NCBI GenBank assembly: GCA_013204395.1 | Contig: JABMNZ010000017.1 | Coordinates: 2,490-66,489 of the forward strand | Direction of reading: 5' to 3' | Length of the DNA stretch: 64,000 bases | Source: Parcubacteria group bacterium | GTDB lineage: Bacteria > Patescibacteriota > Patescibacteriia > UBA9934 > GWF2-40-263 | Shown here: piece after piece, positions 4,389 to 49,030 of the stretch | How positions within the stretch are numbered: position 1 is the first letter of the stretch | Layout of the letters: each line of letters starts with the position of its first letter | The notes under the pieces: generated by a model | The model's input: the letters and a program-made list of their open reading frames with translations, nothing else | Database searches by the model: none | Told to the model about the DNA's origin: nothing | Translations under genes and position numbers: made by a program

Positions 4389-5663
4389 GTGAAGCACCAA
4401 TTCGACGTGAATGGATGGCGATACGGAACAAGTCAGATCGAGGATCTGGCTGACCAGATCCGTGAGCGCGTCTCCGATGAGAATTTTCCCACCGACCAGG
4501 GGGGCAAGGTGTTTGGGCTTTCCATCGCGGACCCGCTCGCAAAGGACGCCTTCAGGGTTCCAAGGTGGATGCCTTTCACGGCACAGACCGATCCGTGTGG
4601 AAGCTGGATCTGGACCAACTCCACTTGGATGGTGCGTAGCAACGCAGCCGACGAGGATTGGGTTGGCCCAGGTGCCGGCGCTCACACGAGCATGACACGA
4701 GGACCGTCATACGTCGCCGAAGCTGCCCGAGAGCTTCTGGGTACCTGTGGTGGTGTTGTGCTTCAGGGCAAATCGGATGGTGTCGGTCTCGTTGTGGACT
4801 TTGGCTGGAGCGAGTTGCTTCAGCGCAATGTCCTGCGCGTCGCCATTGGTATGCCTTCGATGAGTGGTAGCGGACTCAGCTACACAAGCCCCACGTGGGA
4901 CAACGAGGCACGCGTTGGACTCTTCGACGCACACACCGGCGAAGCCATCGTCGATCTGAACACCAACTACTTCGATGTCCAGGCCGTGGTCCGTCCATTC
5001 GTGGACGTGATCGTGCCTCGGCTCATGGAGTGGAGAATCAAGTTCGGGCTTCAGTTCGAGCTCATTGGTTCTCTGAGGGAGGGTGTTGCGGACCTGGTTC
5101 AGGTCCGTCCTAGTCCTGGATCGATCCAGGGACAGGTGGTACAAGCACCTTCAGGCAAGGAACCTCTTGTCACAACCGGCATGGTGAACATGCCTGGCGA
5201 GGTGCTGGCCGAGGTGTACATGGTTCTGGACGGTCACGGTCGCAACCAAGACCCGTTGGAAGTCACGATTATGACTGGTCAAGCTGGACGTCGCATGCCT
5301 ACGGCTGAACATTGGGATCCACTCAAGGAAGCTCTCTGTGGCAAGATCGTCTTCTGGTTGCCGGGCGCACTCCAGAAGTACAGCGGTAGCCTGTTCCAGG
5401 CGGCCGGTGCGTGGCGTCTGGGAGCCGTGGCTCAGATTTCAGCGTGGGCCATTCTCACCAACTCTGCCCACGGGACGTCAACCAACTCGTACCTGAAAAG
5501 CGAGTTGTCCAGAGCCGCTTTTGAGGAAGCGAGGGCTGGTGGTCCACTTCTGTGCATTGGCCGAGAGCTCACAAGGTTGCTCAGACGTGAGTGCAAGGGC
5601 GAAACGCCTCCCGTGCTGCACATCGTCTCCGACGGCTTGGTCGGGCAGGTCTACCGAGGCTAG
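4389..5663 (+). CDS. Hypothetical protein (G+C-rich islet gene 1)
   Basis: 424-aa ORF with GTG start after AAGGAGG. Strong G/C third-position bias unlike the flanking DNA; no recognisable motifs. Confidence 0.55.
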   Translation: MKHQFDVNGWRYGTSQIEDLADQIRERVSDENFPTDQGGKVFGLSIADPLAKDAFRVPRWMPFTAQTDPCGSWIWTNSTWMVRSNAADEDWVGPGAGAHTSMTRGPSYVAEAARELLGTCGGVVLQGKSDGVGLVVDFGWSELLQRNVLRVAIGMPSMSGSGLSYTSPTWDNEARVGLFDAHTGEAIVDLNTNYFDVQAVVRPFVDVIVPRLMEWRIKFGLQFELIGSLREGVADLVQVRPSPGSIQGQVVQAPSGKEPLVTTGMVNMPGEVLAEVYMVLDGHGRNQDPLEVTIMTGQAGRRMPTAEHWDPLKEALCGKIVFWLPGALQKYSGSLFQAAGAWRLGAVAQISAWAILTNSAHGTSTNSYLKSELSRAAFEEARAGGPLLCIGRELTRLLRRECKGETPPVLHIVSDGLVGQVYRG

Positions 5664-5838
5664 CCCACACCAGGCATACACAGCAAACGCGGCTTTTACA
5701 GCCATCCGGCACCCATACGAGGGGTCGGTATTTTGTTTTACCCCCATTTAGGTTGACAAAACGCCTAAACTGGGCTATTATCGTGTCTTGGTTTGAGGCT
5801 TTTCTCATACTCAAGACATCACTTCAAAGGAGGCGTAC

Positions 5839-7710
5839 ATGAACCGCTTTGCCCTGATTCTGGCCCTTGTGGTCGCTGGTTGCAGTCCCCAGATCGAGGA
5901 CGGCCCGCCGTTGGATTCCACGGCGGTGACCGTGAACGTGAACAAGCAGGCCCCGGCCCCGACGTCGGCCCCGCGTCAGGTTCGCGAGCCGGAGATCAAC
6001 GAGGTCTTCTCGAACCCCGAGACGCTCGCTCAGTGGCACGACAGCATGGACGCGGAGATCACCTCCGTTGCCGCCGAGCCCGATCCCCGTGAGATGTTCG
6101 AGGCCATCGCAGCCACGTACACCATCTCCCTGTCCAACCTCGAGCCGTTGTTTGGGAGCAAGGACATCTGGGGGGCTGACTACAACCCCAACGATGAGTA
6201 CACGGATCCTGATCCGGATCCTGTCGCCGAGCTCGATACCCTCGAGCAGGCTGGGTACCTGGAGCGGCAGGACCAGAAGTGGCACGCCGCCCAGATCTAC
6301 ATCGCTCACGGCAACAACGCCGACGCCAACCGCTGCGCCAAGCTCCTCTTCGACGAAGGGAGCTACAAGGTCGCGGCCATGGTGGCTGTGATGACGGGCG
6401 ACATGGACATGATGACCGCGGCCACGACCAAGATGGTCGACGCCCGTTACGTCACCAAGGTCTACGACGTGGTTCGCTACGCGTACGACAACGACAAGAT
6501 CCAGGCCGGGCGACACATTGTCGACACTCACGGATACGACTTGGTCGATGTTCTGGGTGAACAGACAGTGGGTTACCTGGCTCGTACCAGTCAACCGGAC
6601 CTCCTCGCTCCGATCATTGAGTCTTCCCTCGCACTGAGCGGTGGGGACTCGTGGAATGCCGATCAGTACGGGTCCGGCAACCTGGCGGCCGGCATTGTGA
6701 CTCTGGGTCGAACCGATCCTGAGCAAGCACGAGCGTTCGCTGCTCGCTACATCAAGATCCCACACATCAACGTGATGCTGTTGTGGAAGTGTGGTGAGGG
6801 GTGCTACGTGAGCCCCCTGATTGGAACGCTGGAACTGTACCAGCTGATCAAGGGTGATCCTCAGCTCAAGCAGATCTATCTGGACCGCACTCGCGAGTTT
6901 GCACAGGAGGCCTTCCCAGCAATCCACGTGGATGGCGAGGAACGGCCGCGGACCAAGTCGGTCATCCACGGTGTGATCGAGTACGCAGAGTGGAACAACG
7001 GGGAGATGAACGAGAGCTACGTGTTCACCTACCTGATGGCCGTCAAGGCAACTGGCGACCAGGACCTGATCGCTCTGTGGACCGAGATGGTGAACGACTT
7101 CGGTCATCGTCAGGGAGACTACAGTGGCGGGCCCATGGCCTTCGAGCGAGAGATCGGTCGAGGGATCCTGGGTCTGTCCGTGAACCCCACGGCCCCGGAT
7201 CTGGACCTTTCCCAGCAGTACCTGCTCGCGCGTCTCACCGGTGCTTCGGCCCCGGATCTGAGCCCGCTCTGGGACGAGCCTCGTGACAGCAGGCGCTACT
7301 ACAGCCACGACCCACCCAACGCGTCGCTGACTTGGCTGCTCAACATGTTCCTGAATGGGAGTATGGATCAGAACGCACAGGCGGCACTCTTGGCTACGTA
7401 CGAGCTGGTGGCGGAGAACGAGTACAGCACTCCAACTCGGCTGCTGAGCAAGAAGTTCGAAGCAGCCATGAGCGCCCACTACGGCGTTCCGAACACGCTG
7501 AACGCTCTCATGATCAAGCCCGACCGGGCTTTCTACACGAACAAGATAGCTGTCGACGAACGACAGCGTCTGATGCTGCCACCCATCGACCTGTACCCGG
7601 TTACCGAGGACGATGTCCTCGAGATCATCGCGCCGCACCTGCTGCGCATGGAGACCGAGTTGCCGGTCGCACACGCACGCCACATGGCCGCGCATCCGCC
7701 GCGGCCCTGA
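5839..7710 (+). CDS. Hypothetical lipoprotein (G+C-rich islet gene 2)
   Basis: AAGGAGG Shine-Dalgarno, signal peptide with lipobox LVVAGC. The equally long minus-strand ORF 5824..7728 is a GC-shadow ORF. Confidence 0.6.
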   Translation: MNRFALILALVVAGCSPQIEDGPPLDSTAVTVNVNKQAPAPTSAPRQVREPEINEVFSNPETLAQWHDSMDAEITSVAAEPDPREMFEAIAATYTISLSNLEPLFGSKDIWGADYNPNDEYTDPDPDPVAELDTLEQAGYLERQDQKWHAAQIYIAHGNNADANRCAKLLFDEGSYKVAAMVAVMTGDMDMMTAATTKMVDARYVTKVYDVVRYAYDNDKIQAGRHIVDTHGYDLVDVLGEQTVGYLARTSQPDLLAPIIESSLALSGGDSWNADQYGSGNLAAGIVTLGRTDPEQARAFAARYIKIPHINVMLLWKCGEGCYVSPLIGTLELYQLIKGDPQLKQIYLDRTREFAQEAFPAIHVDGEERPRTKSVIHGVIEYAEWNNGEMNESYVFTYLMAVKATGDQDLIALWTEMVNDFGHRQGDYSGGPMAFEREIGRGILGLSVNPTAPDLDLSQQYLLARLTGASAPDLSPLWDEPRDSRRYYSHDPPNASLTWLLNMFLNGSMDQNAQAALLATYELVAENEYSTPTRLLSKKFEAAMSAHYGVPNTLNALMIKPDRAFYTNKIAVDERQRLMLPPIDLYPVTEDDVLEIIAPHLLRMETELPVAHARHMAAHPPRP

Positions 7711-7734
7711 AAAGACGGCGAGGTTCATCCTCGC

Positions 7735-7777
7735 GACCGATCATCCCCCTGGGGCGTGATCGGTCTTTTCTTTTTGG
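7735..7777 (+). terminator. Rho-independent terminator closing the GC-rich islet
   Basis: Stem gaccgatca/tgatcggtc with a 13-nt loop, followed by ttttctttttgg. Confidence 0.6.
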
Positions 7778-7887
7778 TGGTATTATAGGATTAGATTGTG
7801 TTTATCTAGAAAGATGCAACGTTTTGGCTCTGAGAGCGATATAGTTATTGCAAGGTCGAAACATGACTCTTTAGGCGGGGTCAAACT

Positions 7888-7921
7888 GGGCTCGTGGTAA
7901 ACCCCCGAATATCACGAGCCC
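7888..7921 (+). promoter_or_regulatory. 9-bp stem hairpin in the 5' leader of the ECF sigma gene
   Basis: gggctcgtg ... cacgagccc with a 16-nt loop, ending 15 nt before the ATG. Confidence 0.25.
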
Positions 7922-13993: not shown

Positions 13994-14052
13994 ATGGGTA
14001 AGTATATCAGAGCTTGACTTGGTAGGCTCATTAACCTAACCTCCGGACGTCG

Positions 14053-15570
14053 TTGAGCAATTCGATGCGACTGTGGAGGTGTACGATGGCCGACTTTCGG
14101 CAACTTGTGACGGGTGAATCTGTGCACGATTGGATCGCCCGACGCGTCGGGGAGATTCTCTCGGGTGCGGGAACAGCATTTGAGTGCGTGGCCGCGGTGG
14201 GCATGGACCCTGAGTTGACCAGTGTCTACTTCGAGGTGAGTGAAACACGCCCCAAGGGTGATGTTCAGCTTCTCTCGGGTGGAGCAGGTCTCTCGGTCAG
14301 CTTGGGCAAAGATCCCAGCAAGCTCTTTCCCGAGGACATCATCAGCCTGTTTGGTGGCGTGACCCTCAAGGATCAGGCGCTGGACTGCAAGCAAGTGGTC
14401 TTTCGGCTGCCGCTGCAGCACATCGATCCGCAGTTCGCCGCCATGGGGGTGCAAGGGGCACTTCTTCGTGGGGATGAACTGCAGACCAAGGTCACGAACC
14501 TCGGAATCGAAAGGGTCATCTTCTTCGCAGAAGAGGATCAGTTCCCGGCGATCGAGAAGGGGTTGGAACTCGCGCGCGCAGCCAACGTCAGTCGCTGGCT
14601 GAGCGCCATGCCCCCGAACCTTCTCAACGTGACGGCTTTTGCAACCTTGGTTGCCAGCCGCTTCGCAGAGATGGGTTTGGAGGTCTTTGCACCCAGCGCG
14701 GACGAGTACACCAAGATGGGTCTGCTCAAGGGTGTGGCTGCCGGCAACGGTGGGCACTTCCGCGTGCTGGCCGTGCGTATTGATCCGCTCAGCGAACCGA
14801 CCGAGAAGGTGATCGCCTACGTGGGCAAGACGCTGGTATTCGATGCCGGCGGCTTGAACATCAAGGGGGCACACGCACGTGGCATGAAGGGTGACATGGG
14901 TGGAGGTGCCAGCATCTTCGGCTCGGCCAGCTACCTGGCACAACACCGTGAGCTCCTCACGCGTTCGGTGGTTTTTGTCTGGACTATCACCGAGAACGTG
15001 ATTGGGCCCGACGCCTACCGACCTGACGACGTCCTCACCGCCTTCAACGGGGTGACGGTCGAGATCGACAACACGGATGCAGAAGGACGCTTGGCTCTGG
15101 CTGACGCCATGGCCTGGATCTGCACGAAGGTGGAGGTGACGCAGTTGGTGCCGGTGTGTACCCTCACAGGAGCGGCAGTGGTCGCCTTCGGGTCCGCGGC
15201 GTCTGCCCTGCACTTGAAGGACAGCCGTCGCCGTCTGGATGAAGTCGGCCGCTTGGAACGTCTCTCCTTTGACTCTGGTGACTCGGTGAACATCATCCAT
15301 CATCACCCGCACGCTGCGGCAATCCTTGCGTCGCACATCGCCGACATCAAGAACGCTGGTGGAGGCAACAAGAACGGTGGCTCCTCACAGGGCTTCGCCT
15401 TCCTCCTGAACTTCGCACCCAACGGTGTGGACGTCATGGAGCTGGACATTGCCGGCAAGGCGGGTCTCGACTTCGCGGGAGGAAACGGCCTGCAGGCTGG
15501 AACGAGTCTTCCGGCTGCCGTCTGGTTCGTCATCGCGATCGAGGGCACTTACGAGGTACCCGTCCAGTAG
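14053..15570 (+). CDS. M17 leucyl aminopeptidase family protein (G+C-rich islet gene 3, second copy)
   Basis: M17 signature NTDAEGRL plus VFDAGGLNIKG and GDMGGGA metal-binding motifs. Strong GC3 bias; the minus-strand 451-aa ORF is a shadow. Confidence 0.75.
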   Translation: MSNSMRLWRCTMADFRQLVTGESVHDWIARRVGEILSGAGTAFECVAAVGMDPELTSVYFEVSETRPKGDVQLLSGGAGLSVSLGKDPSKLFPEDIISLFGGVTLKDQALDCKQVVFRLPLQHIDPQFAAMGVQGALLRGDELQTKVTNLGIERVIFFAEEDQFPAIEKGLELARAANVSRWLSAMPPNLLNVTAFATLVASRFAEMGLEVFAPSADEYTKMGLLKGVAAGNGGHFRVLAVRIDPLSEPTEKVIAYVGKTLVFDAGGLNIKGAHARGMKGDMGGGASIFGSASYLAQHRELLTRSVVFVWTITENVIGPDAYRPDDVLTAFNGVTVEIDNTDAEGRLALADAMAWICTKVEVTQLVPVCTLTGAAVVAFGSAASALHLKDSRRRLDEVGRLERLSFDSGDSVNIIHHHPHAAAILASHIADIKNAGGGNKNGGSSQGFAFLLNFAPNGVDVMELDIAGKAGLDFAGGNGLQAGTSLPAAVWFVIAIEGTYEVPVQ

Positions 15571-15590
15571 ACACGAGCCCATTCGGGCAT

Positions 15591-15620
15591 CCCACTTTGC
15601 ATCCGTGCAAGTGGGTTTTT
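15591..15620 (+). terminator. Rho-independent terminator
   Basis: cccacttTgca-tccg-tgcaagtggg followed by ttttt. Confidence 0.5.
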
Positions 15621-31323: not shown

Positions 31324-32667
31324 ATGATGATCTATATACGGTGCATCAGCCTTTTTGATGTAATTGAAATAGGTAATTCATTAAAAAAAGACATTATGCA
31401 ACAAGATATCAAGATCCAATACGTTCCGATCACAAGTCTTAAATCAGCCGAATATAACCCTCGCTCCTGGGACGATTCAGCTAAAGAAAAGCTCAAAGCG
31501 AGCATTAAGCAACACGGTTTTTGCGATCCTGTGATCGTGAATAGTTCACTGGAGCGGAAGAATATCATCGTTGGTGGTCACTTTAGTACTGAATGCGCGA
31601 AGGAGCTTGGTTTTACAGAAGTTCCTGTCGTTTACGTTGAGTTAACACTAGAGCAAGAGAAGGCTCTCAACTTAAGATTAAATCGTGTTTCTGGAAGTTG
31701 GGATTTTGAACTCTTGAAAGAATTCGATATTGATCTTCTTCTTGATGTCGGGTTTGACGACACAGATCTTTCCAATATTTGGGACGATATTCTGTCGATC
31801 GAAGACGATGACTTTGATGTTGAAGGAGCTGTAGATGAAATAAAAGAACCAACAACTAAACTTGGTGATCATTATCAGCTTGGAAATCACAGGCTTCACT
31901 GCGCGGACTCGACAGATTTGGAGTCTGTGAAACGACTTGTAGGTGATCAGAAAATTGACATGGTTTTTTGTGACCCTGTCTACAATATTGGATTCAGTTA
32001 TAAAGACGGACTGACGACGAAAGGAAAATATGGAGGTAAAGCAAATGACACGAAATCAGATGAGGATTATCGGAACTTCATCAAAGCTTCGATGGAGAAC
32101 GCTCTGTCTGTAGCAAAACCTGATGCTCATGTCTTCTATTGGTGCGATCAGAAATACATTGGGCTTATGCAGTCGCTGTATGCAGAACTTGGCGTTGCGA
32201 ATAAGCGTGTGTGTATGTGGATCAAGAATAATTTCAACATGACACCTCACATCGCTTTCAACAAAGCGTACGAGCCATGTGTGTATGGAACGATCGGGTC
32301 GCCTTATCTTAATCCTGACGTCACAAACATTCATGAAATCGTGAATAAGGAGGTTGCTTCTGGGAATCGGTGCCTTTCAGACATTATCGACTTATTCGAT
32401 ATTTGGCTCGCTAAACGAGATAACGGAAATGAGTACGAGCATCCGACGCAAAAGCCGTTAACGCTTTGTGAGAAGCCCTTGAGGCGTTGTACGAAGCCAG
32501 GGGACAACGTCCTAGACTCTTTCGGTGGTGGCGGTAGTGTGTTGTTGAGCTGTGAGCAGATGAAGCGGAAGGCATTTTTGATAGATATAGATCCGATTTT
32601 CTGTGATGTGATAATTCGCAGGTTCGAGGAGATGACCGGAATCAAGGCTATTAAAATTAACGACTAA
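31324..32667 (+). CDS. ParB-like nuclease N-terminal domain fused to N4/N6 DNA methyltransferase (phage/plasmid-type orphan MTase)
   Basis: ParB-N region (DPVIVNS...IIVGGH) followed by motif IV DPVY and motif I FGGGGS in a beta-class MTase. The true start may be the ATG at 31396. Confidence 0.7.
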   Translation: MMIYIRCISLFDVIEIGNSLKKDIMQQDIKIQYVPITSLKSAEYNPRSWDDSAKEKLKASIKQHGFCDPVIVNSSLERKNIIVGGHFSTECAKELGFTEVPVVYVELTLEQEKALNLRLNRVSGSWDFELLKEFDIDLLLDVGFDDTDLSNIWDDILSIEDDDFDVEGAVDEIKEPTTKLGDHYQLGNHRLHCADSTDLESVKRLVGDQKIDMVFCDPVYNIGFSYKDGLTTKGKYGGKANDTKSDEDYRNFIKASMENALSVAKPDAHVFYWCDQKYIGLMQSLYAELGVANKRVCMWIKNNFNMTPHIAFNKAYEPCVYGTIGSPYLNPDVTNIHEIVNKEVASGNRCLSDIIDLFDIWLAKRDNGNEYEHPTQKPLTLCEKPLRRCTKPGDNVLDSFGGGGSVLLSCEQMKRKAFLIDIDPIFCDVIIRRFEEMTGIKAIKIND

Positions 32668-33423: not shown

Positions 33424-33865
33424 ACATATCCCATCACCGTATCCTGCGGTGGCAGAACGACAGGATAAGCAAAAAGAGCTTGTTATTGAACAGCTAAAGA
33501 AAACGCCGATCATTCAGATTGTGTGCGAGAAGGTTGGAATATCACGCGCGACATTCTACAGATGGAAACAAGACGACCTGGTATTCGCAGATGCACTTGA
33601 ACATGCAATCTTTATGGGCGTTGAGCTTGTAAACGACATGGCAGAGTCACAGTTATTGTCGGCGATTCGTGATCAGAATATGACAGCCATTATCTTCTGG
33701 CTGAAGCATCGACACCGATCATACGGGACACGCGTTTCGTTGGATGCCAATCTAAACGTAAACAGAAGCTTGAGTACAGAGGAGCAAGAGACAATCAAGA
33801 AGGCTTTAAGTCTCGCGAAATTAATTCCTGAAAGCATTGCGTATGACGAACAAGAAACTGAGTGA
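33416..33865 (+). CDS. Putative terminase small subunit (HTH protein)
   Basis: HTH (VGISRATFYRWKQ) immediately upstream of and overlapping the terminase large subunit gene. Confidence 0.45.
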   Translation: MNEHIPSPYPAVAERQDKQKELVIEQLKKTPIIQIVCEKVGISRATFYRWKQDDLVFADALEHAIFMGVELVNDMAESQLLSAIRDQNMTAIIFWLKHRHRSYGTRVSLDANLNVNRSLSTEEQETIKKALSLAKLIPESIAYDEQETE

Positions 33866-35330
33866 TCAGATACTGCAGGACAAAGGTATCCGTACAGGGC
33901 TGACAACGGGAAGTCATATGTGGTTCTTTCATACCTATATCAGCGATTATGTGCAGTATCCGACGGCGCCATTTCAGAGACAGTTCTTTGATATCACCGA
34001 AGACACCTCAACCAAGCTCGTCGTCTTAACAGCGTTTCGTGGATCGGCGAAGTCTACAATATTCACTATGTCGTATCCGATTTGGGCGATTCTTGGAAAA
34101 CAGCAGAAGAAATTCGTTTTGATTTTGTCGCAGACTCAGTCGCAGGTAAAAATGCATCTTGCAAACTTAAAGCGTGAGCTTGAGTCAAATAGATTGTTGC
34201 GCCAAGACCTGGGACCATTCGAAGAGCAAGATGAGGAATGGAGTTCTGGAACGATTGTACTTCCGAAGTATGGAGCACGCATCACCGCGCTCTCTATGGA
34301 GCAAGGAGTTCGAGGATTGCGCCACGGGTCGCATCGTCCCGATATTATCATCTGTGACGACATCGATGACATATCATCTGTAAAGACAAAAGATTCACGG
34401 GATAAAGTGTGTAACTGGTTTTTGGGCGATGTCGTCCCAGCAGGAGACACGGATACGCGCATTATTGTTGTTGGTAACTTGTTGCACGAGGATTCGCTGA
34501 TGATGAGGTTGAAAAATCAAATTGAATCAGATCAACTGGATGGATCGTTCTTTTCGTTTCCCATTGTAGATGAGATAGATAAGCCTATCTGGCCAGGAAA
34601 ATTTAGGAAGCCAGAAGATCTCTTGAATCTGAAGAGGAAAATCGGGAACGAGGTCGTATGGCAACGGGAGTATATGCTTCGCATAATATCCAATACAGAT
34701 CGCGTAGTGCATCCCGAATGGATTCAATTTTATGACGAGTTACCAAAGCTCGCTGGAAATGTTGAACTGCGAGGGATCTATAGCGGGGTGGATCTGGCTA
34801 TCTCTGAAAAGACATCAGCTGATTACACCGCGATAGTCACTGTTGCCGTTTACGTTGTCGACAAGGAAGTTAAAATCTACGTCTTCCCAAACCCAGTGAA
34901 TCAACGACTGACATTTCCGAAAACTGTAGAACGCATAAAGATGCTTTACGACAACATCCATGAGAGTAATAGTAGAAACAAGATCTATATTGAGGATGTT
35001 GGATATCAGAAAGCCCTCATACAGCAACTTGAAATGGAGCGCTTGCCCGTTGAAGGCGTCGGGGTTGGCGGTACAGACAAAAGATCCCGCATCGCGCTCA
35101 CAAGCCCACATATCGAGTCTGGAAAGGTTTTATTCCCCAAGAAGGGGTGTAAAGATCTGATCATGCAGTTAGTCGATTTTGGTGCGGAAAAAAATGACGA
35201 TTTGGCTGATGCATTTTCCATGGTAATTAATAAGGCTGTCACAATAAAATACTGCACATTCGGAATCTGGGACTTGAATCAGGATGTAGGACCCATGATT
35301 GTTGGAGACATTATGAATAGAAGGTTCTAG
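33837..35330 (+). CDS. Phage terminase large subunit
   Basis: Terminase Walker A (AFRGSAKST), Walker B (IIICDDIDD), C-terminal RNaseH-like nuclease (GVDLAISEKTSADYTAIV). Confidence 0.75.
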   Translation: MRMTNKKLSDQILQDKGIRTGLTTGSHMWFFHTYISDYVQYPTAPFQRQFFDITEDTSTKLVVLTAFRGSAKSTIFTMSYPIWAILGKQQKKFVLILSQTQSQVKMHLANLKRELESNRLLRQDLGPFEEQDEEWSSGTIVLPKYGARITALSMEQGVRGLRHGSHRPDIIICDDIDDISSVKTKDSRDKVCNWFLGDVVPAGDTDTRIIVVGNLLHEDSLMMRLKNQIESDQLDGSFFSFPIVDEIDKPIWPGKFRKPEDLLNLKRKIGNEVVWQREYMLRIISNTDRVVHPEWIQFYDELPKLAGNVELRGIYSGVDLAISEKTSADYTAIVTVAVYVVDKEVKIYVFPNPVNQRLTFPKTVERIKMLYDNIHESNSRNKIYIEDVGYQKALIQQLEMERLPVEGVGVGGTDKRSRIALTSPHIESGKVLFPKKGCKDLIMQLVDFGAEKNDDLADAFSMVINKAVTIKYCTFGIWDLNQDVGPMIVGDIMNRRF

Positions 35331-35383: not shown

Positions 35384-36679
35384 GTGCATATGGAAGGTCT
35401 CGAAACAACTGCACTACATTACGTCTTATACGCGCGAAAATCGTCCGAAGCAGAGGAGAGACAGGCTTTGTCGATAGAGTCGCAGGTTAAGGAGATTTCA
35501 GCCTTTGCAGAGCAACAGGGGCTCACAATCGTGGAGATAAAGAGAGAAAGCCATTCCGCAAAGGATACAGGGCAGAGGAAGGTGTTTAACTCCATGATCC
35601 AAGGTCTTAGAGACGGCAAGTACCAGGGAATCGTCACATGGGCACCAGACAGGTTGAGTCGCAACGCAGGCGATCTTGGAGCGCTGGTTGACCTTATGGA
35701 CAGCAAGAAGCTTCAACAGATCAGAACACCAAGCCAGATGTTCACCAACTCTCCGAGCGACAAATTCCTGCTCATGATCCTGTGCTCGCAGGCCAAGCTC
35801 GAGAATGATAATAAGAGTGTGAATGTGAAGCGCGGACTACGTGCCAAGTGCGAGTTGGGTGTGCGTCCAGGCGTTGCGCCGCTTGGGTATCTTAACAATC
35901 CAAATCAGACAAAGGGACAAAGGAAGATAAATCTAGATCCAGAACGCGCGCATGTCATAAAAGAAATGTTCGAGCTAGTTGCAGAGCATGGATACAGTGG
36001 GCGCGACTTGTTCGTGTGGATCAATAAGGAAACGGGAATGCGTACACGTGGTGGAAAGAAGGTGTCGCTAAGTTCGATCTACCGCATGCTAAACACGCCG
36101 TTTTACTACGGTGAGTTTGAGTACCCACGAGGTGGGGGAGTATGGTACAAGGGCGACCACGATCCGTTAATATCAAAAGAGTTATTCGAGAAAGTACAGA
36201 AGCATTTAGACATACCGACTCGCGAAAAGAAAAGGTCTCACACGTTCAACTACACAAGGCTCATACGTTGCGGGGACTGCGGGTCGTTTGTGTCTGCTGA
36301 TCAAAAAATTAAGACATTAAAGTCTGGTGAGCAAAAGCATTACATCTATTACAGATGCTCTCGTGGTCGCGATCGTTTCTGCGCTCAGCCTCCGATCACA
36401 GAGGATGATCTTGTCGGCGAGATGTACAAAGTCTTCGATCAAATTAAGCTGGATGAAAAGAAACTCACACAAAATCTCAAGCGTGAGTTTCTTAAATACC
36501 GAAACTTCATGAGGGATGTATTCGGAGCAGAAGTTGCGCGTCAAAGCGATGACAAGCTGAATGTGAATGCGTACGCGCAGTACTTGCTCAAGACAGGATC
36601 GCGCGAGGAAAAGCGGGAGTTGCTTAAAAGCCTAGAAACTAAGCTCGTTCTTCAGAGTAGATGTCTAAATATCCCTTGA
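35384..36679 (+). CDS. Large serine recombinase (phage integrase-type)
   Basis: Resolvase catalytic domain with YARKSS catalytic Ser, a recombinase domain, a C-terminal zinc ribbon (CGDCGS...YYRCS) and coiled-coil. Confidence 0.8.
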   Translation: MHMEGLETTALHYVLYARKSSEAEERQALSIESQVKEISAFAEQQGLTIVEIKRESHSAKDTGQRKVFNSMIQGLRDGKYQGIVTWAPDRLSRNAGDLGALVDLMDSKKLQQIRTPSQMFTNSPSDKFLLMILCSQAKLENDNKSVNVKRGLRAKCELGVRPGVAPLGYLNNPNQTKGQRKINLDPERAHVIKEMFELVAEHGYSGRDLFVWINKETGMRTRGGKKVSLSSIYRMLNTPFYYGEFEYPRGGGVWYKGDHDPLISKELFEKVQKHLDIPTREKKRSHTFNYTRLIRCGDCGSFVSADQKIKTLKSGEQKHYIYYRCSRGRDRFCAQPPITEDDLVGEMYKVFDQIKLDEKKLTQNLKREFLKYRNFMRDVFGAEVARQSDDKLNVNAYAQYLLKTGSREEKRELLKSLETKLVLQSRCLNIP

Positions 36680-36778
36680 AAACAGCTTGTTTTAGAGGTA
36701 TGGTGGTTGACAGAAGTCCATTTTTCTGCTACATTTAGCCGTTGTTCTTTACTATCTATCAAGTTCCAATATCTCTTG

Positions 36779-36822
36779 AGAGTGGCGTTTTGCAGTTAGT
36801 GCAGACTTCAAAACGCCACTCT
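36779..36822. repeat. Perfect 14-bp inverted repeat with 16-nt spacer between recombinase and DGR target
   Basis: agagtggcgttttg ... caaaacgccactct. Confidence 0.4.
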
Positions 36823-36902
36823 TAATGAACAAAGGCAGGTTTCCGTGAGCGCATAGGGTGCGAACGGTGGCTAGTCGGAGTTGGCACAAGGAGGCAGGTC
36901 TT

Positions 36903-37730
36903 ATGGCCGGTCCCGATCCTGACCAGAACGCTGAGTTCTGGCGTCGTTTTCGCCGCTTCGGCGGCACCGATCCTACCATGAAGGAGCTCCTCGGAGACGA
37001 TGAGCTCATGGAGTGGTGGATCACGTCGCTCAACGAGCGACGCAACTCCAACCCGTTCGAGATCTCTGTGAAGGAGTCCCTCGATCGTCTGCGAGCCGCC
37101 TACGACGACACCTTCTGTCCGCTGGGCGCGAAGGAGCCGACGTCTTCGGAGCTCACTCACCTCGAGCGTATGGCGCCCAACTGGCCCAAGGGCAAAGACG
37201 CCTTCCGCAGCTTCCAGGTGCGGCCGGCGGCCTTCGGCGAGGGTCGCGATGGGGTCATCAATACCTTCGAGGCGACCTGCGCGAGCGTCAAGCTCATCCA
37301 CGACCCCAAGTTCTGGCGATGGGAGTTGCTCCTCTCGGGAGCGCATCCGTACCAGGGCGAGGACGTGGAACGCCTGCGACTACTGGGCGGCAACGAGCGC
37401 CACACTCCGGGGGTCTGCTGGGTCACCTTCAATCTGTCGGAGGGTCGGCAGCGCGCCGATGTCACGTCCGTGCGAAGCGGTCGGTCACTCTCGGACGCCG
37501 GGATCTTCGCTGCGCGGATGTTCCCGGATCGCGCCAAGGCGATCGACTACGAGAAGAAGCCGGCTTGGTTCTGTGCTGGCTACGAGTTGAACGTCCCCGA
37601 GCGCGCTGATGAGCCGTGGCAGTACGTGCCCTGCGTGCACCGCAACGTGCGCTACGGCACGGTGCCCCTGCGCGCCCACTGGCGCGGCGATGCCAACTCG
37701 CGCTACTCGGTGCCCTCCGTCGGGGAGTAG
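36903..37730 (+). CDS. DGR target protein carrying the C-terminal variable repeat (VR); G+C-rich islet gene 4
   Basis: AAGGAGG Shine-Dalgarno 8 nt before the ATG at 36903; the ORF is open from 36858. Its last ~130 nt match the downstream template repeat except at template adenines. Confidence 0.7.
   Translation: MAGPDPDQNAEFWRRFRRFGGTDPTMKELLGDDELMEWWITSLNERRNSNPFEISVKESLDRLRAAYDDTFCPLGAKEPTSSELTHLERMAPNWPKGKDAFRSFQVRPAAFGEGRDGVINTFEATCASVKLIHDPKFWRWELLLSGAHPYQGEDVERLRLLGGNERHTPGVCWVTFNLSEGRQRADVTSVRSGRSLSDAGIFAARMFPDRAKAIDYEKKPAWFCAGYELNVPERADEPWQYVPCVHRNVRYGTVPLRAHWRGDANSRYSVPSVGE
37592..37724 (+). repeat. DGR variable repeat (VR)
   Basis: About 133 nt, matching 38161-38293 with roughly 18 mismatches, all at positions where the other copy has A. 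Confidence 0.8.
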
Positions 37731-37862
37731 GCACTGGGAACTTGAACGCTTTGCGCTCGGAGGTTCTTGGGACTTGTCTCTTGACCCTTCGTTCGCGAAG
37801 CGAACTCGCCACGAAAAAGCGCACGCGCTCTACGTGGCACTGCGGCATCTGGAAAACGCTCA

Positions 37863-37897
37863 ATAGAAGAGTGTCACTCCCAGGTGCCGCTCTTCTA
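37863..37897 (+). terminator. Hairpin downstream of the DGR target gene
   Basis: atagaagag ... ctcttctat (9-bp stem, 17-nt loop) followed by tttcaa. Confidence 0.3.
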
Positions 37898-38160
37898 TTT
37901 CAACAATCTTTGATAAACTAGTAGTGGAAAGTAGGTCAGTGAGCCCGTGTTTAAGAATACTGGTCACCGAAATCTCTTGTTTCCCAATATACCGGCAGAG
38001 TTTCATTGTTCACGGATAATGAAAGTGTACGGTGGGACTAACAAGCACTCCGCATTTCATCTTGGAATCAACCTTCAGTGAAGGAGTGAGTTCCGCATAA
38101 AATTCAGAAGTCGGATGCGTCTGACTTTGGTGTCATGGAAGGGTGAAGTGTAAAGTGAGG

Positions 38161-38293
38161 CGTCCCCGAGAACGATAATGAGCCGTGGCAGAACGTGCCC
38201 TGCGTGAACCGCAACGTGAACAACGGCACGGTGAACCTGAACGCCAACTGGCGCAGCAATGCCAACTCGAACTACTCGGTGCCCTCCGTCGGG
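38161..38293 (+). repeat. DGR template repeat (TR)
   Basis: Non-coding copy of the VR that is enriched in AAC triplets; every VR/TR difference maps to a TR adenine. Confidence 0.8.
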
Positions 38294-38339
38294 AGTTCTT
38301 GTGTAGCAAAGAAGCGCTCTATCGCGCTTCTTTGTCTTC

Positions 38340-38714
38340 CTAGTTCTTTTTGAGATCCTCCTGAGTGCGTTTGATCCAGCCACCTAGCATCTTTCCTGTT
38401 TCAATAAGTCTGGACTCAATGTGGAGATATTGATTGTTCCCAATGCACTTGCAGTCCTTGGATAGTCGTACAAGGAGTTTAGTAAGATCAAGTTTTGCGC
38501 TTGCTTGTTGCAGAGTCGTTAGCTTCTCCTGGTCTTTGGTACTTGCGCTGGCGGTAAGGACCAATTCAAGCACCGTCAGAGCATGAAGCGAGACGCGTTC
38601 ACCCAAAGTGTATCGTTGTACTTTTGGAAACTTTACTATGATCTCATTCCACTCAGCATAAATATCGTATAGCGTATGAGCAATTGGGATATCACCAGGA
38701 CCGCCTCTGAGCAA
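38340..38714 (-). CDS. avd: Avd-like DGR accessory protein (four-helix-bundle, 23S-rRNA-IVS protein family)
   Basis: Family-typical segments (VKFPKVQRYTLGERVSLHAL ... GKMLGGWIKR). TTG start. Lies between TR and RT on the opposite strand. Confidence 0.7.
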   Translation of the reverse strand: MLRGGPGDIPIAHTLYDIYAEWNEIIVKFPKVQRYTLGERVSLHALTVLELVLTASASTKDQEKLTTLQQASAKLDLTKLLVRLSKDCKCIGNNQYLHIESRLIETGKMLGGWIKRTQEDLKKN

Positions 38715-38733
38715 CTTTCGATCTTTCCTAATA

Positions 38734-39735
38734 ATGCGGGGGGGGGGGAGAAATAGGCGTCCTCATAGGTTGGATAGTTATGATTTGTTTTCACGGATCA
38801 CTTCAATAGAAAACCTTTTTATCGCATGGGAACGTTTTCGTAAAGGTAAGCGAAGTCGCCAAGACGTAATGTTATTTGAACGCCATCTTGAAGACAACTT
38901 GTTTGCCCTACAAGCCGAACTTGCCTCAGGTGCTTACCAGCATAGTCCCTACGAGCGATTTACCATCCACGACCCAAAACAACGTACTATTCACAAGGCC
39001 GATGTAAAAGATCGCGTTGTCCATCAAGCCATTGTGAATGTTATCGAGCCCTTATTTGAGAAGCGATTCATTTATGACAGTTATTCATGCCGTGTAGGAA
39101 AAGGTACGCATGCGGCGGTGAAGAGGCTGAGGACGTTCTTGCTCAGAGATAGTATCAACAATATAAAAACAGTCTACGCTCTCAAATGTGACATTCAAAA
39201 GTTTTTCGCGAGTGTGAATCATCGAAAGCTTCTTCATCTTCTTGAAAGACACATTCACGATCCCGAAACCATGAAGCTGCTTACTGGTGTCATTGAAAGC
39301 TTTTCTGTTTCGCCTGGCGTGGGAATACCTCTGGGCAATCTCACAAGTCAATTATTCGCAAACGTGTACCTTCATGAGTTGGATTGGTTCGCGAAGCAAG
39401 AACTAAAAGTGCACCACTACGTTCGGTACTGTGACGATTTTGTGTTGCTCGCAGAATCCCAGGAAGAATGTGATGTATTCACTGAACGAATTGAGATGTT
39501 TCTTAAAAGTCATCTCCACATGCATCTGCATCCAAACAAAGTACACGTGAGGACCTGGAGGCAGGGTGTAGATTTTCTCGGATATATATTGTTACCACAC
39601 ACGACCATTTTACGACCGTCTACAAAGAAAAGGATGATCCGCAAAATCAACAAGGACAATGCAAGTTCGTACCTTGGTTTGTGTCAGCACGCAAACGCCT
39701 TTGATCTTGAACGAATGTTAAAGAACCTAGTTTGA
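38734..39735 (+). CDS. DGR reverse transcriptase
   Basis: RT motifs including the DGR-characteristic IPLGNLTSQLFANVYLHELD and catalytic YCDDFVLL. The ATG at 38734 is followed by a G11 tract; TTG at 38770 or 38785 are alternative starts. Confidence 0.85.
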   Translation: MRGGGRNRRPHRLDSYDLFSRITSIENLFIAWERFRKGKRSRQDVMLFERHLEDNLFALQAELASGAYQHSPYERFTIHDPKQRTIHKADVKDRVVHQAIVNVIEPLFEKRFIYDSYSCRVGKGTHAAVKRLRTFLLRDSINNIKTVYALKCDIQKFFASVNHRKLLHLLERHIHDPETMKLLTGVIESFSVSPGVGIPLGNLTSQLFANVYLHELDWFAKQELKVHHYVRYCDDFVLLAESQEECDVFTERIEMFLKSHLHMHLHPNKVHVRTWRQGVDFLGYILLPHTTILRPSTKKRMIRKINKDNASSYLGLCQHANAFDLERMLKNLV

Positions 39736-43656: not shown

Positions 43657-43709
43657 GACTCCCGAGGGGGGAGTCAGTGGAACACCGCTTCGTCGCGGTG
43701 TTTTCTATC
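43657..43709. terminator. Two back-to-back hairpin terminators serving convergent genes
   Basis: gactccc-gaggg-gggagtc (minus-strand T-run) and acaccgc-ttcgtc-gcggtgt followed by tttct (plus strand). Confidence 0.5.
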
Positions 43710-44874
43710 TGATCTCACGGAGGTTGCCGCCCCAGTGATGGGTCAGGCAGATCCAGGCGAGATCCTCGATCCAGCTAATGATCTGCAGTCGACCATTGTG
43801 TTGCATCCGACCGAACCCACCGTTTACCGGAAGCGGGATGGTGTCGGTGACGATGAGCTTGGAGATCGGACACCCAGCAGCGGTGAATCGCTCCTCAGCC
43901 TCTCCACAGAGAACGGCATGTGTTGCCGCACCCCATACATCTGCCGCTTCGTTGCCAGCAAGTGCCTTCAGCTCGTCCGTTCCACGAAGTACACGGGCGA
44001 ACTTCATCATTGAGCCAGCGGTGGCAATCTCGTCGTCGAACATGACGGCGATTCTTCCTCGAACCAGTCGAGGGTCGCCAACAATGCCGACGATCTTGGT
44101 CTCTGTTGCACTCAGACGTCGTTTGAGTGCCGTGACGTCAGGGAACGTGAGCCCCATCTCAAGCTCGATTGCACCACGTGCTGTATCAAAGCGCTTGCGT
44201 GCACTGTCGTCTGGGAAGACGAGACACAATCGTTCCGGATCCGGCACCAAAGAGATGACGTGCTTGAGCACGCGCCGAGTGAGGTACACAGGAGTGACCT
44301 GCCCAGGTCTTCCGACCATGGAGATCTGCTCGCTGTGCGGATCGACGCAGATCCACCGGTGCAGTCCAACGGCTCCACATGCTGCTTCTACCAGCGCCAT
44401 CAGCATGGGCGGCATGGTCAGCTCGGTGTCACCCTCGTCCTTGTCAGAGCGACACAGTGGGAAATAGCCGGTGATGAGCGTGATGCGAGCGGCGTGACGA
44501 CCTCCGACATACGAGAGCGTCCAGAAAAGGTCCATGAGCATCTGGTCCGTTCCGGGACCTGTGGTGATGACCATGACGTCGTGCTCGCGGACATGACGAC
44601 CACCGAGCCTTACGAACGTCTCTTTGCTGGGACGACGACTGAAGTCCGGGGTAGCGATGTCTACGGGCGTCAGTCTCTCGCCGGGTCGACGTCCGCGCTC
44701 TTCAATGAGCCTTGCGACGCTTTCTACCACGGGCTGAAAACTCGGAGTTCCAGGTACCAGGGAAAGTCCACCAACCCTGTTGAAGGGGGGGGCGCTTCCA
44801 TCTCTTGTACGCGCGGAGCCAAACGGACTCATCGCTCGACAGGCCCAGGATTCCTGTTGCCCGCTTGATTGCAT
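43705..44874 (-). CDS. Ribose-phosphate pyrophosphokinase (PRPP synthetase)-like protein; G+C-rich islet gene 5
   Basis: Prs-like N-terminal region (LSLVPGTPSF ... RLGGRHVREHDVMVITT), VDPHSEQI and the PRPP-binding loop MFDDEIATAGS. Strong GC3 bias. A C8/G8 tract sits in the N-terminal region, so the start is uncertain. Confidence 0.6.
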   Translation of the reverse strand: MQSSGQQESWACRAMSPFGSARTRDGSAPPFNRVGGLSLVPGTPSFQPVVESVARLIEERGRRPGERLTPVDIATPDFSRRPSKETFVRLGGRHVREHDVMVITTGPGTDQMLMDLFWTLSYVGGRHAARITLITGYFPLCRSDKDEGDTELTMPPMLMALVEAACGAVGLHRWICVDPHSEQISMVGRPGQVTPVYLTRRVLKHVISLVPDPERLCLVFPDDSARKRFDTARGAIELEMGLTFPDVTALKRRLSATETKIVGIVGDPRLVRGRIAVMFDDEIATAGSMMKFARVLRGTDELKALAGNEAADVWGAATHAVLCGEAEERFTAAGCPISKLIVTDTIPLPVNGGFGRMQHNGRLQIISWIEDLAWICLTHHWGGNLREIR

Positions 44875-45077
44875 CTTTCAAGTGGGCTGGTATTCCATCG
44901 CGGCCAAAGGGCAGTCCGGTCATCGGGTCGTCTCCATCCTCATTATTGAGGAGCGAGTTAACCTAAGCAAAAAACAGCCCTATGTCAAGGCTGTTTTATC
45001 TGTTGGATTTTGGATTCCAGGTGTCTCGAGGTTGTTACATTCTGTGTGCCCAGGCTTCCTTTCTGTCTACTTCTTGT

Positions 45078-48632: not shown

Positions 48633-49030
48633 ATGACCGATGAGCAAGACTGGGAAAAAAACTGACCCCGGAGCAATTCAAGGTTCTTAGAGAGAAGGGG
48701 ACGGAGCCACCGTTCAGCGGTGAGTTTTTAGATAACAACGCTGAAGGTATGTATCATTGTGCTGGTTGTGGTGCAGTTCTTTTTAAGAGCGATGGTAAGT
48801 ATGAATCAAATGCACCTGGTCTTGTTGGGTGGCCCAGCTTCTCGGAGGTGGCAAAAGATGGTGCAGTTGAGCTTCGAGATGATGATTCATTTGGCATGCA
48901 TCGCACTGAAGTTATTTGCAAGAACTGTGGAGGTCATTTAGGTCATTTATTTGACGATCAGGAATCAAAAACGGGAAAACACTTCTGTATTAATTCTTGT
49001 GCACTCGGGTTTAAAAAACAAGACGTATGA
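48633..49030 (+). pseudogene. msrB: Methionine-R-sulfoxide reductase MsrB interrupted by a -1 frameshift in an A7 tract, or a homopolymer sequencing error
   Basis: Frame 0 (MTDEQDWEKN*) stops at 48663. Frame +2 from 48662 continues LTPEQFKVLREKGTEPPFSGEF...CAGCG...CKNCGGHLGHLFDD (SelR with 2 CxxC). One extra A at 48655-48661 would restore WEKKLTPEQ. Confidence 0.65.

Follow-up and report, generated by a model that had tools for sequence, protein, structure and literature searches.

Our analysis indicates that a run of 11 G residues at the 5′ junction of the divergent avd and RT genes of a DGR is a genuine, evolutionarily maintained simple-sequence repeat, one that recurs at the same place in many related systems and changes its length in some of them. 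The run lies in a Parcubacteria/Uhrbacteria-like MAG, within a stretch of 64 kb that was analyzed as a whole and is referred to here as the window. On the avd strand it reads as C11. It is the sole G/C run longer than 8 nt in the window: the counts of G runs drop from 10 at length 6 to one G8 and one G11, and in 100 dinucleotide-preserving shuffles of the window the mean expectation for a run of this type was 0.03 (1 observed), with at least one such run in 2 of the 100 shuffles. With 11 residues it is above the instability threshold for contingency repeats, which is a G/C run of ~7 to 8 or longer. The ATG, the single C and the G11 that a previous, sequence-only reading of this DNA had described as the beginning of the RT ORF are exactly where they had been placed (ATG at 38734 to 38736, C at 38737, directly followed by the run), and the junction reads cctaataATGcGGGGGGGGGGGagaaataggcgtcctcataggTTGgatagttatgatTTG. 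Likewise, the two in-frame TTG codons downstream could be read from the sequence, and the divergence of avd (minus strand) and RT (plus strand) was confirmed by ORFs and profile matches. The longest ORFs of the two genes stand head to head and are 19 nt apart.

The element around the run is a bona fide, complete DGR (Table 1). VR and TR form a 133-nt repeat with 86% identity, in which 18 of 18 mismatches are at TR adenines, and both RT and Avd are present. IPLGNLTSQ is readable in the translation of the RT ORF and corresponds to the DGR-type [I/L]GxxxSQ motif; the closest RT homologues are Patescibacteria DGR-type RTs with an adjacent bAvd gene. The layout is target-TR-(avd)-RT, with avd inverted between TR and RT. 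A B3 architecture was found in 90% of the CPR DGR set of Wu et al. 2018 (PMC5758913), and by our reading of the layout, the DGR in the window appears to fit this type. It shares with the DGR of Bordetella phage BPP-1 and with B3-type CPR DGRs an RT with the LGxxxSQ motif, an Avd, an adenine-specific TR/VR pair and a VR at the 3′ end of the target gene. Unlike in the window, avd, TR and brt of BPP-1 are on one strand in this order, with a structured spacer of 140 nt and no homopolymer. The avd gene of the window has a TTG start at 38714, 23 nt downstream of the C run and preceded by AGGAAAG (38729 to 38723), and a TTG at +23 from the run is kept in the subclade to which the window belongs.

Table 1. 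Features of the DGR and of the avd/RT junction, in positions of the window
Feature	Position	Strand	Basis or remark
Variable repeat (VR)	37592..37724	+	3′ end of target gene ORF 36858-37730
Template repeat (TR)	38161..38293	+	Repeat comparison
avd accessory gene	38340..38714	-	Pfam PF22296 bAvd, E=5.7e-16, 59.4 bits (cut-off 40)
RT ORF, 333 aa	38734..39735	+	RVT_1 E=3.2e-22; LGNLTSQ hallmark motif
G11 homopolymer	38738..38748	+	Sequence; homologous G7-G16 runs in 38/109 related loci
agaaATA	38749..38755 (ATA 38753-38755)	+	Probable relic of ancestral RT start
Antisense ATG	38764..38766	-	Complement of conserved RT His codon CAT; in frame with avd only at G10 or G13
Alternative in-frame TTGs	38770-38772, 38785-38787	+	Could give residual RT if run slips

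Two placements of the run had been considered in the sequence-only reading, namely inside the RT ORF, where it would encode a poly-Gly N-terminus, or in the spacer between the divergent start sites. For the window the former is the better supported of the two, whereas the latter describes most other relatives. The best-supported RT start is ATG 38734-38736, from which the run would be read as codons 2 to 5, Arg-Gly-Gly-Gly. An alignment with close homologs, which had been suggested as a check, revealed an ATG (window) or a GTG (L081, L082, L001) in the RT frame, 1 nt ahead of the run, and L063 and L004 have ATG-TGT-C-G12, also in frame. Altogether, this upstream type of start is in frame in 9 of 9 assemblies (the window, L081/83/84, L082/86, L001, L063 and L004). 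In L001, no other canonical start is in frame ahead of residue 46, L063 and L004 have none between the run and the conserved N-terminus, and in L081 the sole other in-frame start is a TTG inside the conserved N-terminal segment. The two TTGs of the window are not conserved as starts; relatives have TCA/TCT and TTA at these positions. When the four closest lineages (69 to 88% nucleotide identity) were aligned, there were no indels from the avd TTG to the RT core, synonymous-type change started only at DLFSRITSIENL, and the linker after the run was poorly conserved at the protein level. The NCBI call of the RT has 288 amino acids and starts at Met46, and therefore it omits 45 N-terminal residues including the conserved N-terminus. 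Since SD-like motifs are found in just 9 of the 45 genes of the window genome, the missing Shine-Dalgarno sequence before ATG 38734 is normal here. As for the ATA codon behind the run, L163 and L164 have an RT start of the form G(n)-agaa-ATG, 4 nt after the run, and in the window subclade a 1-nt deletion in the linker puts the ATA codon out of frame.

That the run is maintained is suggested by its distribution. A total of 175 related loci were gathered, and the counts were taken from the first 162, anchored on the conserved RT N-terminus, of which 109 are non-redundant. A G run of at least 7 residues (range, 7 to 16) is present no more than 120 nt upstream of the RT core in 38 of these 109 loci, in all 38 cases as G on the RT-sense strand, and C runs are missing from these 120 nt in all 109. 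G runs occur in the same loci at a background rate of 0.0019 per 120 nt, which corresponds to an enrichment of ~180-fold. Another 9 of the 109 loci have (GA)n or (CT)n in the same 120-nt stretch, and a run or an equivalent repeat is found upstream of the RT in about 40% of the related systems. In a neighbor-joining tree of RT sequences, three large clades of Patescibacteria have kept the repeat throughout, and one clade, DPANN and other outgroups are without it; in the repeat-free clade, the start codons of avd and RT are just 10 to 20 nt apart. The RT strand carries (CT)n in four lineages, and L006 and L028, both with (CT)n, branch among Saccharibacteria that have a G run. The relatives of this DGR found in a scan of viral contigs (up to 44% identity, canonical gene order) are without a repeat upstream of the RT. 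In most relatives a clear RT ATG lies 4 to 36 nt downstream of the run, and the avd TTG is 8 to 23 nt away on the other strand; an example from another clade is ATGaaaattcaattgagcCAT (L108 and L142). In a limited search of the literature on simple-sequence repeats, homopolymers and phase variation in Patescibacteria or DGRs, nothing turned up on a repeat at the avd/RT junction.

Slipped-strand mispairing had been expected from the length of the run, and for relatives this expectation is supported indirectly: the length differs by one G in three related lineages with no mismatches over 2.2 to 5.7 kb. In these three pairs of contigs, which come from different samples, the one G is the sole difference (L151 versus L150, G9 versus G8, 3147 bp aligned; L093 versus L092, G10 versus G9, 5661 bp; L126 versus L129, G10 versus G9, 2212 bp). 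L108 and L015 (G11TAA versus G13) differ at the run only, over 3126 bp aligned. Furthermore, L006 has (CT)7 and L028 has (CT)11 with 95.6% identity, and the A7 runs of the same loci are invariant. The run thus appears to be hypermutable in relatives, although these are consensus assemblies and the differences of ±1 could partly be homopolymer errors. In a further pair, L148 and L151, which otherwise have no mismatches in 1564 bp, a deletion of 36 to 37 nt in L148 abuts the run, and the beginning of the N-terminal region of avd is lost with it. In contrast, no length variation was seen among the consensus assemblies of the lineage of the window: G11 is found in each of L081, L083 and L084 (three samples, 100% identical), and G9 in both L082 and L086. 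A look-up of the exact protein of the NCBI RT call returned no second assembly of the window's own strain. The difference between G11 and G9TT, found between lineages, is a substitution that preserves the spacing. A uniform tract length together with a conserved Gly stretch had been named beforehand as evidence against a switch, and at the consensus level part of this picture is indeed seen, with G11 in three sister assemblies, R-G-G-G or R-G-G-V encoded, and spacing and frame kept in four lineages. The stability of the consensus in the window lineage would fit a stably translated element equally well.

In our model, G11 would keep the RT that is initiated at ATG 38734 in frame (ON state). Slipped-strand mispairing that adds or removes one G would end this frame, with a stop after 7 codons at G12 and after 24 codons at G10 according to the frame table, and at most the unconserved internal TTG starts would remain. 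The output of RT, and hence the adenine mutagenesis of the target, would then cease or fall strongly until another slip brings the frame back. Of the explanations considered for the window this one has the best support, and we consider the chances to be even that the run is translated at the RT N-terminus and that one-base slips would switch RT, and with it DGR mutagenesis, off and on. The phase variation of the DGR that had been put forward from the sequence is mechanistically plausible in the form of such a frameshift switch, but there is no OFF allele among the subclade assemblies, and the in-frame TTGs at 38770 and 38785 speak against it insofar as they could bypass the run. Moreover, the run is outside the RT ORF in most relatives, and therefore its role across the family cannot be RT frameshifting alone.

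It is imaginable, but in our view rather doubtful, that across Patescibacteria a hypermutable repeat, either poly-G or (GA)n/(CT)n, is kept at the avd/RT junction as a three-phase toggle which would make targeted hypermutation stochastically phase-variable. In this view, avd and RT overlap the repeat with their 5′ ends, each on its own strand. The RT start would be in frame in one phase, an antisense ATG would be in the frame of avd in another, and in the third neither would be. In the window, G11 would be the phase with the RT in frame, and G10 or G13 would be the phase of the avd ATG. Indeed, the frame table has the minus-strand ATG at 38766 in frame with avd at G10, and a minus-strand GTG at 38794 is in frame with avd at G9 or G12. 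Family-wide, the phase that puts the upstream ATG in frame with avd is no commoner than 1/3.

The antisense ATG has counterparts in many relatives. A few codons after its start, the RT has a conserved His codon (CAT) whose complement on the avd strand reads ATG, as seen in L108/L142 (ATGaaaattcaattgagcCAT), L151 (GTGagcCAT), L087 (ATGtgtcgtCAT) and L032 (ATGcttcgcCAT). With this arrangement the start codons would overlap head to head, and in some lineages avd would be extended at its N-terminus by a segment that contains the repeat. Beyond the run, a canonical avd start is lacking in about 15 of 40 lineages. A translation of the run as poly-Pro in avd, starting from the antisense ATG, was considered and rejected as a general rule: it is in frame in ~10 of the 40 lineages and in 5 of the 15 without a canonical avd start, which is the 1/3 expected by chance, and every member of the window subclade is out of that frame. 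It does fit some lineages (L151, L032, L087 and L088). Of the pairs that differ by one G, L151 (G9) is in frame and L150 (G8) is out, which toggles the sole canonical avd start, and L092 (G9) is in frame and L093 (G10) is out, which toggles the sole canonical RT start. A separate observation concerns positions 38706 to 38733, from the avd TTG to the run, where the variation is mainly at third codon positions of the RT frame (SNFRS...) as well as of the avd frame (...RKERKL). Such a pattern hints at translation of the segment on one strand, for which no canonical start would account at the observed run length.

Apart from a frameshift switch, the run may be a fixed N-terminal leader of the RT (a short Gly linker) or an element that tolerates changes in length, with slippage being incidental and removed by selection. 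The in-frame state of all nine subclade assemblies, the identical length in the three sister samples and the lack of indels between the avd TTG and the RT core in the four lineages are all in line with such a leader. In Bordetella, the N-terminal extension of bRT contacts Avd in the structure (10.1101/2023.10.23.563531), and a leader is plausible for this reason. Nevertheless, we regard it as rather unlikely, because the run is also kept where it is not translated in the RT frame and the RT ATG follows 4 to 36 nt downstream, because it is swapped for (GA)n or (CT)n in other lineages, because a Gly linker needs no pure homopolymer (GGG makes up 21% of the Gly codons here), and because conservation of the linker after the run is poor at the protein level. 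The position of the run between the two starts in most relatives may point instead to a noncoding cis element, that is, a promoter spacer or a 5′ untranslated region shared by avd and RT, whose length tunes transcription or the fate of the mRNA. The ±1 polymorphisms fall in lineages with the run between the starts, and the short distance between the starts in lineages without a repeat agrees with such an element as well. On the other hand, the sole conserved RT start of the window subclade precedes the run. We looked for a sigma-70 promoter next to the run and discarded it, with 0 sigma-70-like hexamer pairs in 37700-39100 on both strands versus 1.3 expected, where the consensus may differ from the promoters of Patescibacteria. 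A structured RNA element around the run was discarded, too, as the RNA folds no more stably than shuffled sequences on both strands (z = +1.06 and +1.73). Hence, we assign a low probability to a noncoding role.

That the polypurine run serves as a Shine-Dalgarno-like or ribosome-standby site for RT translation would explain why it is G on the RT-sense strand in every one of the 38 loci, and the G(n)-AGAA-ATG of L163 and L164 and the (GA)5-N5-ATG of L032 have the appearance of such a site. However, SD-like motifs are scarce in the window genome (see above), the ATG is 13 to 36 nt from the run in most loci, the RT strand carries (CT)n in four lineages, and in the window the run is downstream of the start, all of which makes this function very improbable. 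It had also been considered that the homopolymer is an error of sequencing or assembly. Some contigs of relatives do end in the run with implausible low-complexity sequence (G25 in L005, and L165), but the run was found at the same contig-internal site in dozens of independent assemblies from different projects, including G11 in three samples of the sister lineage. We therefore reject an artefact as the origin of the G11 and consider it extremely improbable. As a side observation, the contigs of L005 (start, G25), L040 (start) and L165 (positions 1 to 130) stop at the run, where the sequence is G25 or a low-complexity scramble of G and C; in relatives, assemblies break at the run and artefactual sequence arises there.

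The mechanism suggested here for the window would be classical homopolymer phase variation, and the element under its control would be a DGR of the type common in CPR. Poly-G/C contingency loci with translational phase variation include the poly-G genes of Campylobacter jejuni and lgt and pilC of Neisseria. As in the loci of Campylobacter and Neisseria, a G/C run of ~8 to 13 nt is located in the first codons of an ORF and one-base slips shift the frame, and as in those loci the length differs between otherwise identical genomes, which here was seen in relatives. Unlike in those loci, the gene concerned encodes the polymerase of a targeted hypermutation system and not a surface or modification enzyme, the host belongs to the Patescibacteria, and no ON/OFF polymorphism was seen among the assemblies of the window lineage. 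Repeats can also be located in promoters, as is the case for the (TA)n of hifA/hifB in Haemophilus, the poly-C of the fim genes in Bordetella, and porA and opc of Neisseria. The run at the avd/RT junction resembles repeats of the hifA/hifB type in that it lies between divergent genes of one functional unit and changes in its length could affect both. In contrast to hifA/hifB, fim and porA/opc, no recognizable −35 and −10 elements flank the run, and in the window it is inside the RT ORF.

To our knowledge, the control of DGR mutagenesis is largely unexplored outside a few model systems. If the model is true, slippage would be a simple check on the DGR, with most cells in one state and rare slip variants in the other. 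The cost of hypermutation would be limited while the capacity is kept, and this would apply to a large share of the DGRs of Patescibacteria. For annotation it means that gene callers mis-start these RT and avd genes and that assemblies tend to break at the run.

The surroundings of the DGR deserve mention as well. A ParB-N6/N4 methylase fusion (31324-32667), a terminase large subunit (33837-35330) and a large serine recombinase (35384-36679) are directly upstream of the DGR target gene, and because of these neighbors, the terminase and the recombinase among them, the DGR may sit on an integrated phage-like element. An inverted repeat with 21-nt arms (90% complementary) at 36776-36825 is just upstream of the target gene, and another with 16-nt arms (88% complementary) is found at 37862-37899, ~130 nt downstream of VR; in model DGRs, a hairpin comes after VR. 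Furthermore, the window has islands with 58 to 62% GC in a genome of ~44% GC (5000-7900, 14000-15600, 36900-37900 and 43700-44900), which contain an unknown ORF (~630 amino acids, both strands open), an M17 aminopeptidase, the DGR target gene and a prs-like gene. These islands are possibly acquired genes.

Two other slippage-prone runs that had been pointed out in the window are present as described. A G8 at 44785-44792 is near the N-terminus of the minus-strand prs-like ORF (43705-44874), where it reads as C8 on the coding strand at about codons 28 to 30, in frame; the ORF has weak matches to Pribosyltran_N and Pribosyl_synth. An A7 at 48655-48661 breaks msrB, as it separates the ATG at 48640 from the SelR/MsrB domain (48647-49000), which is out of frame. 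The frame of the SelR domain has no start of its own, and with A6 the frame of ATG 48640 would be fused to the domain (MSKTGKKLTPEQF). It may be that the frameshift is genuine, that a second gene is controlled by slippage here, or that the homopolymer contains an error.
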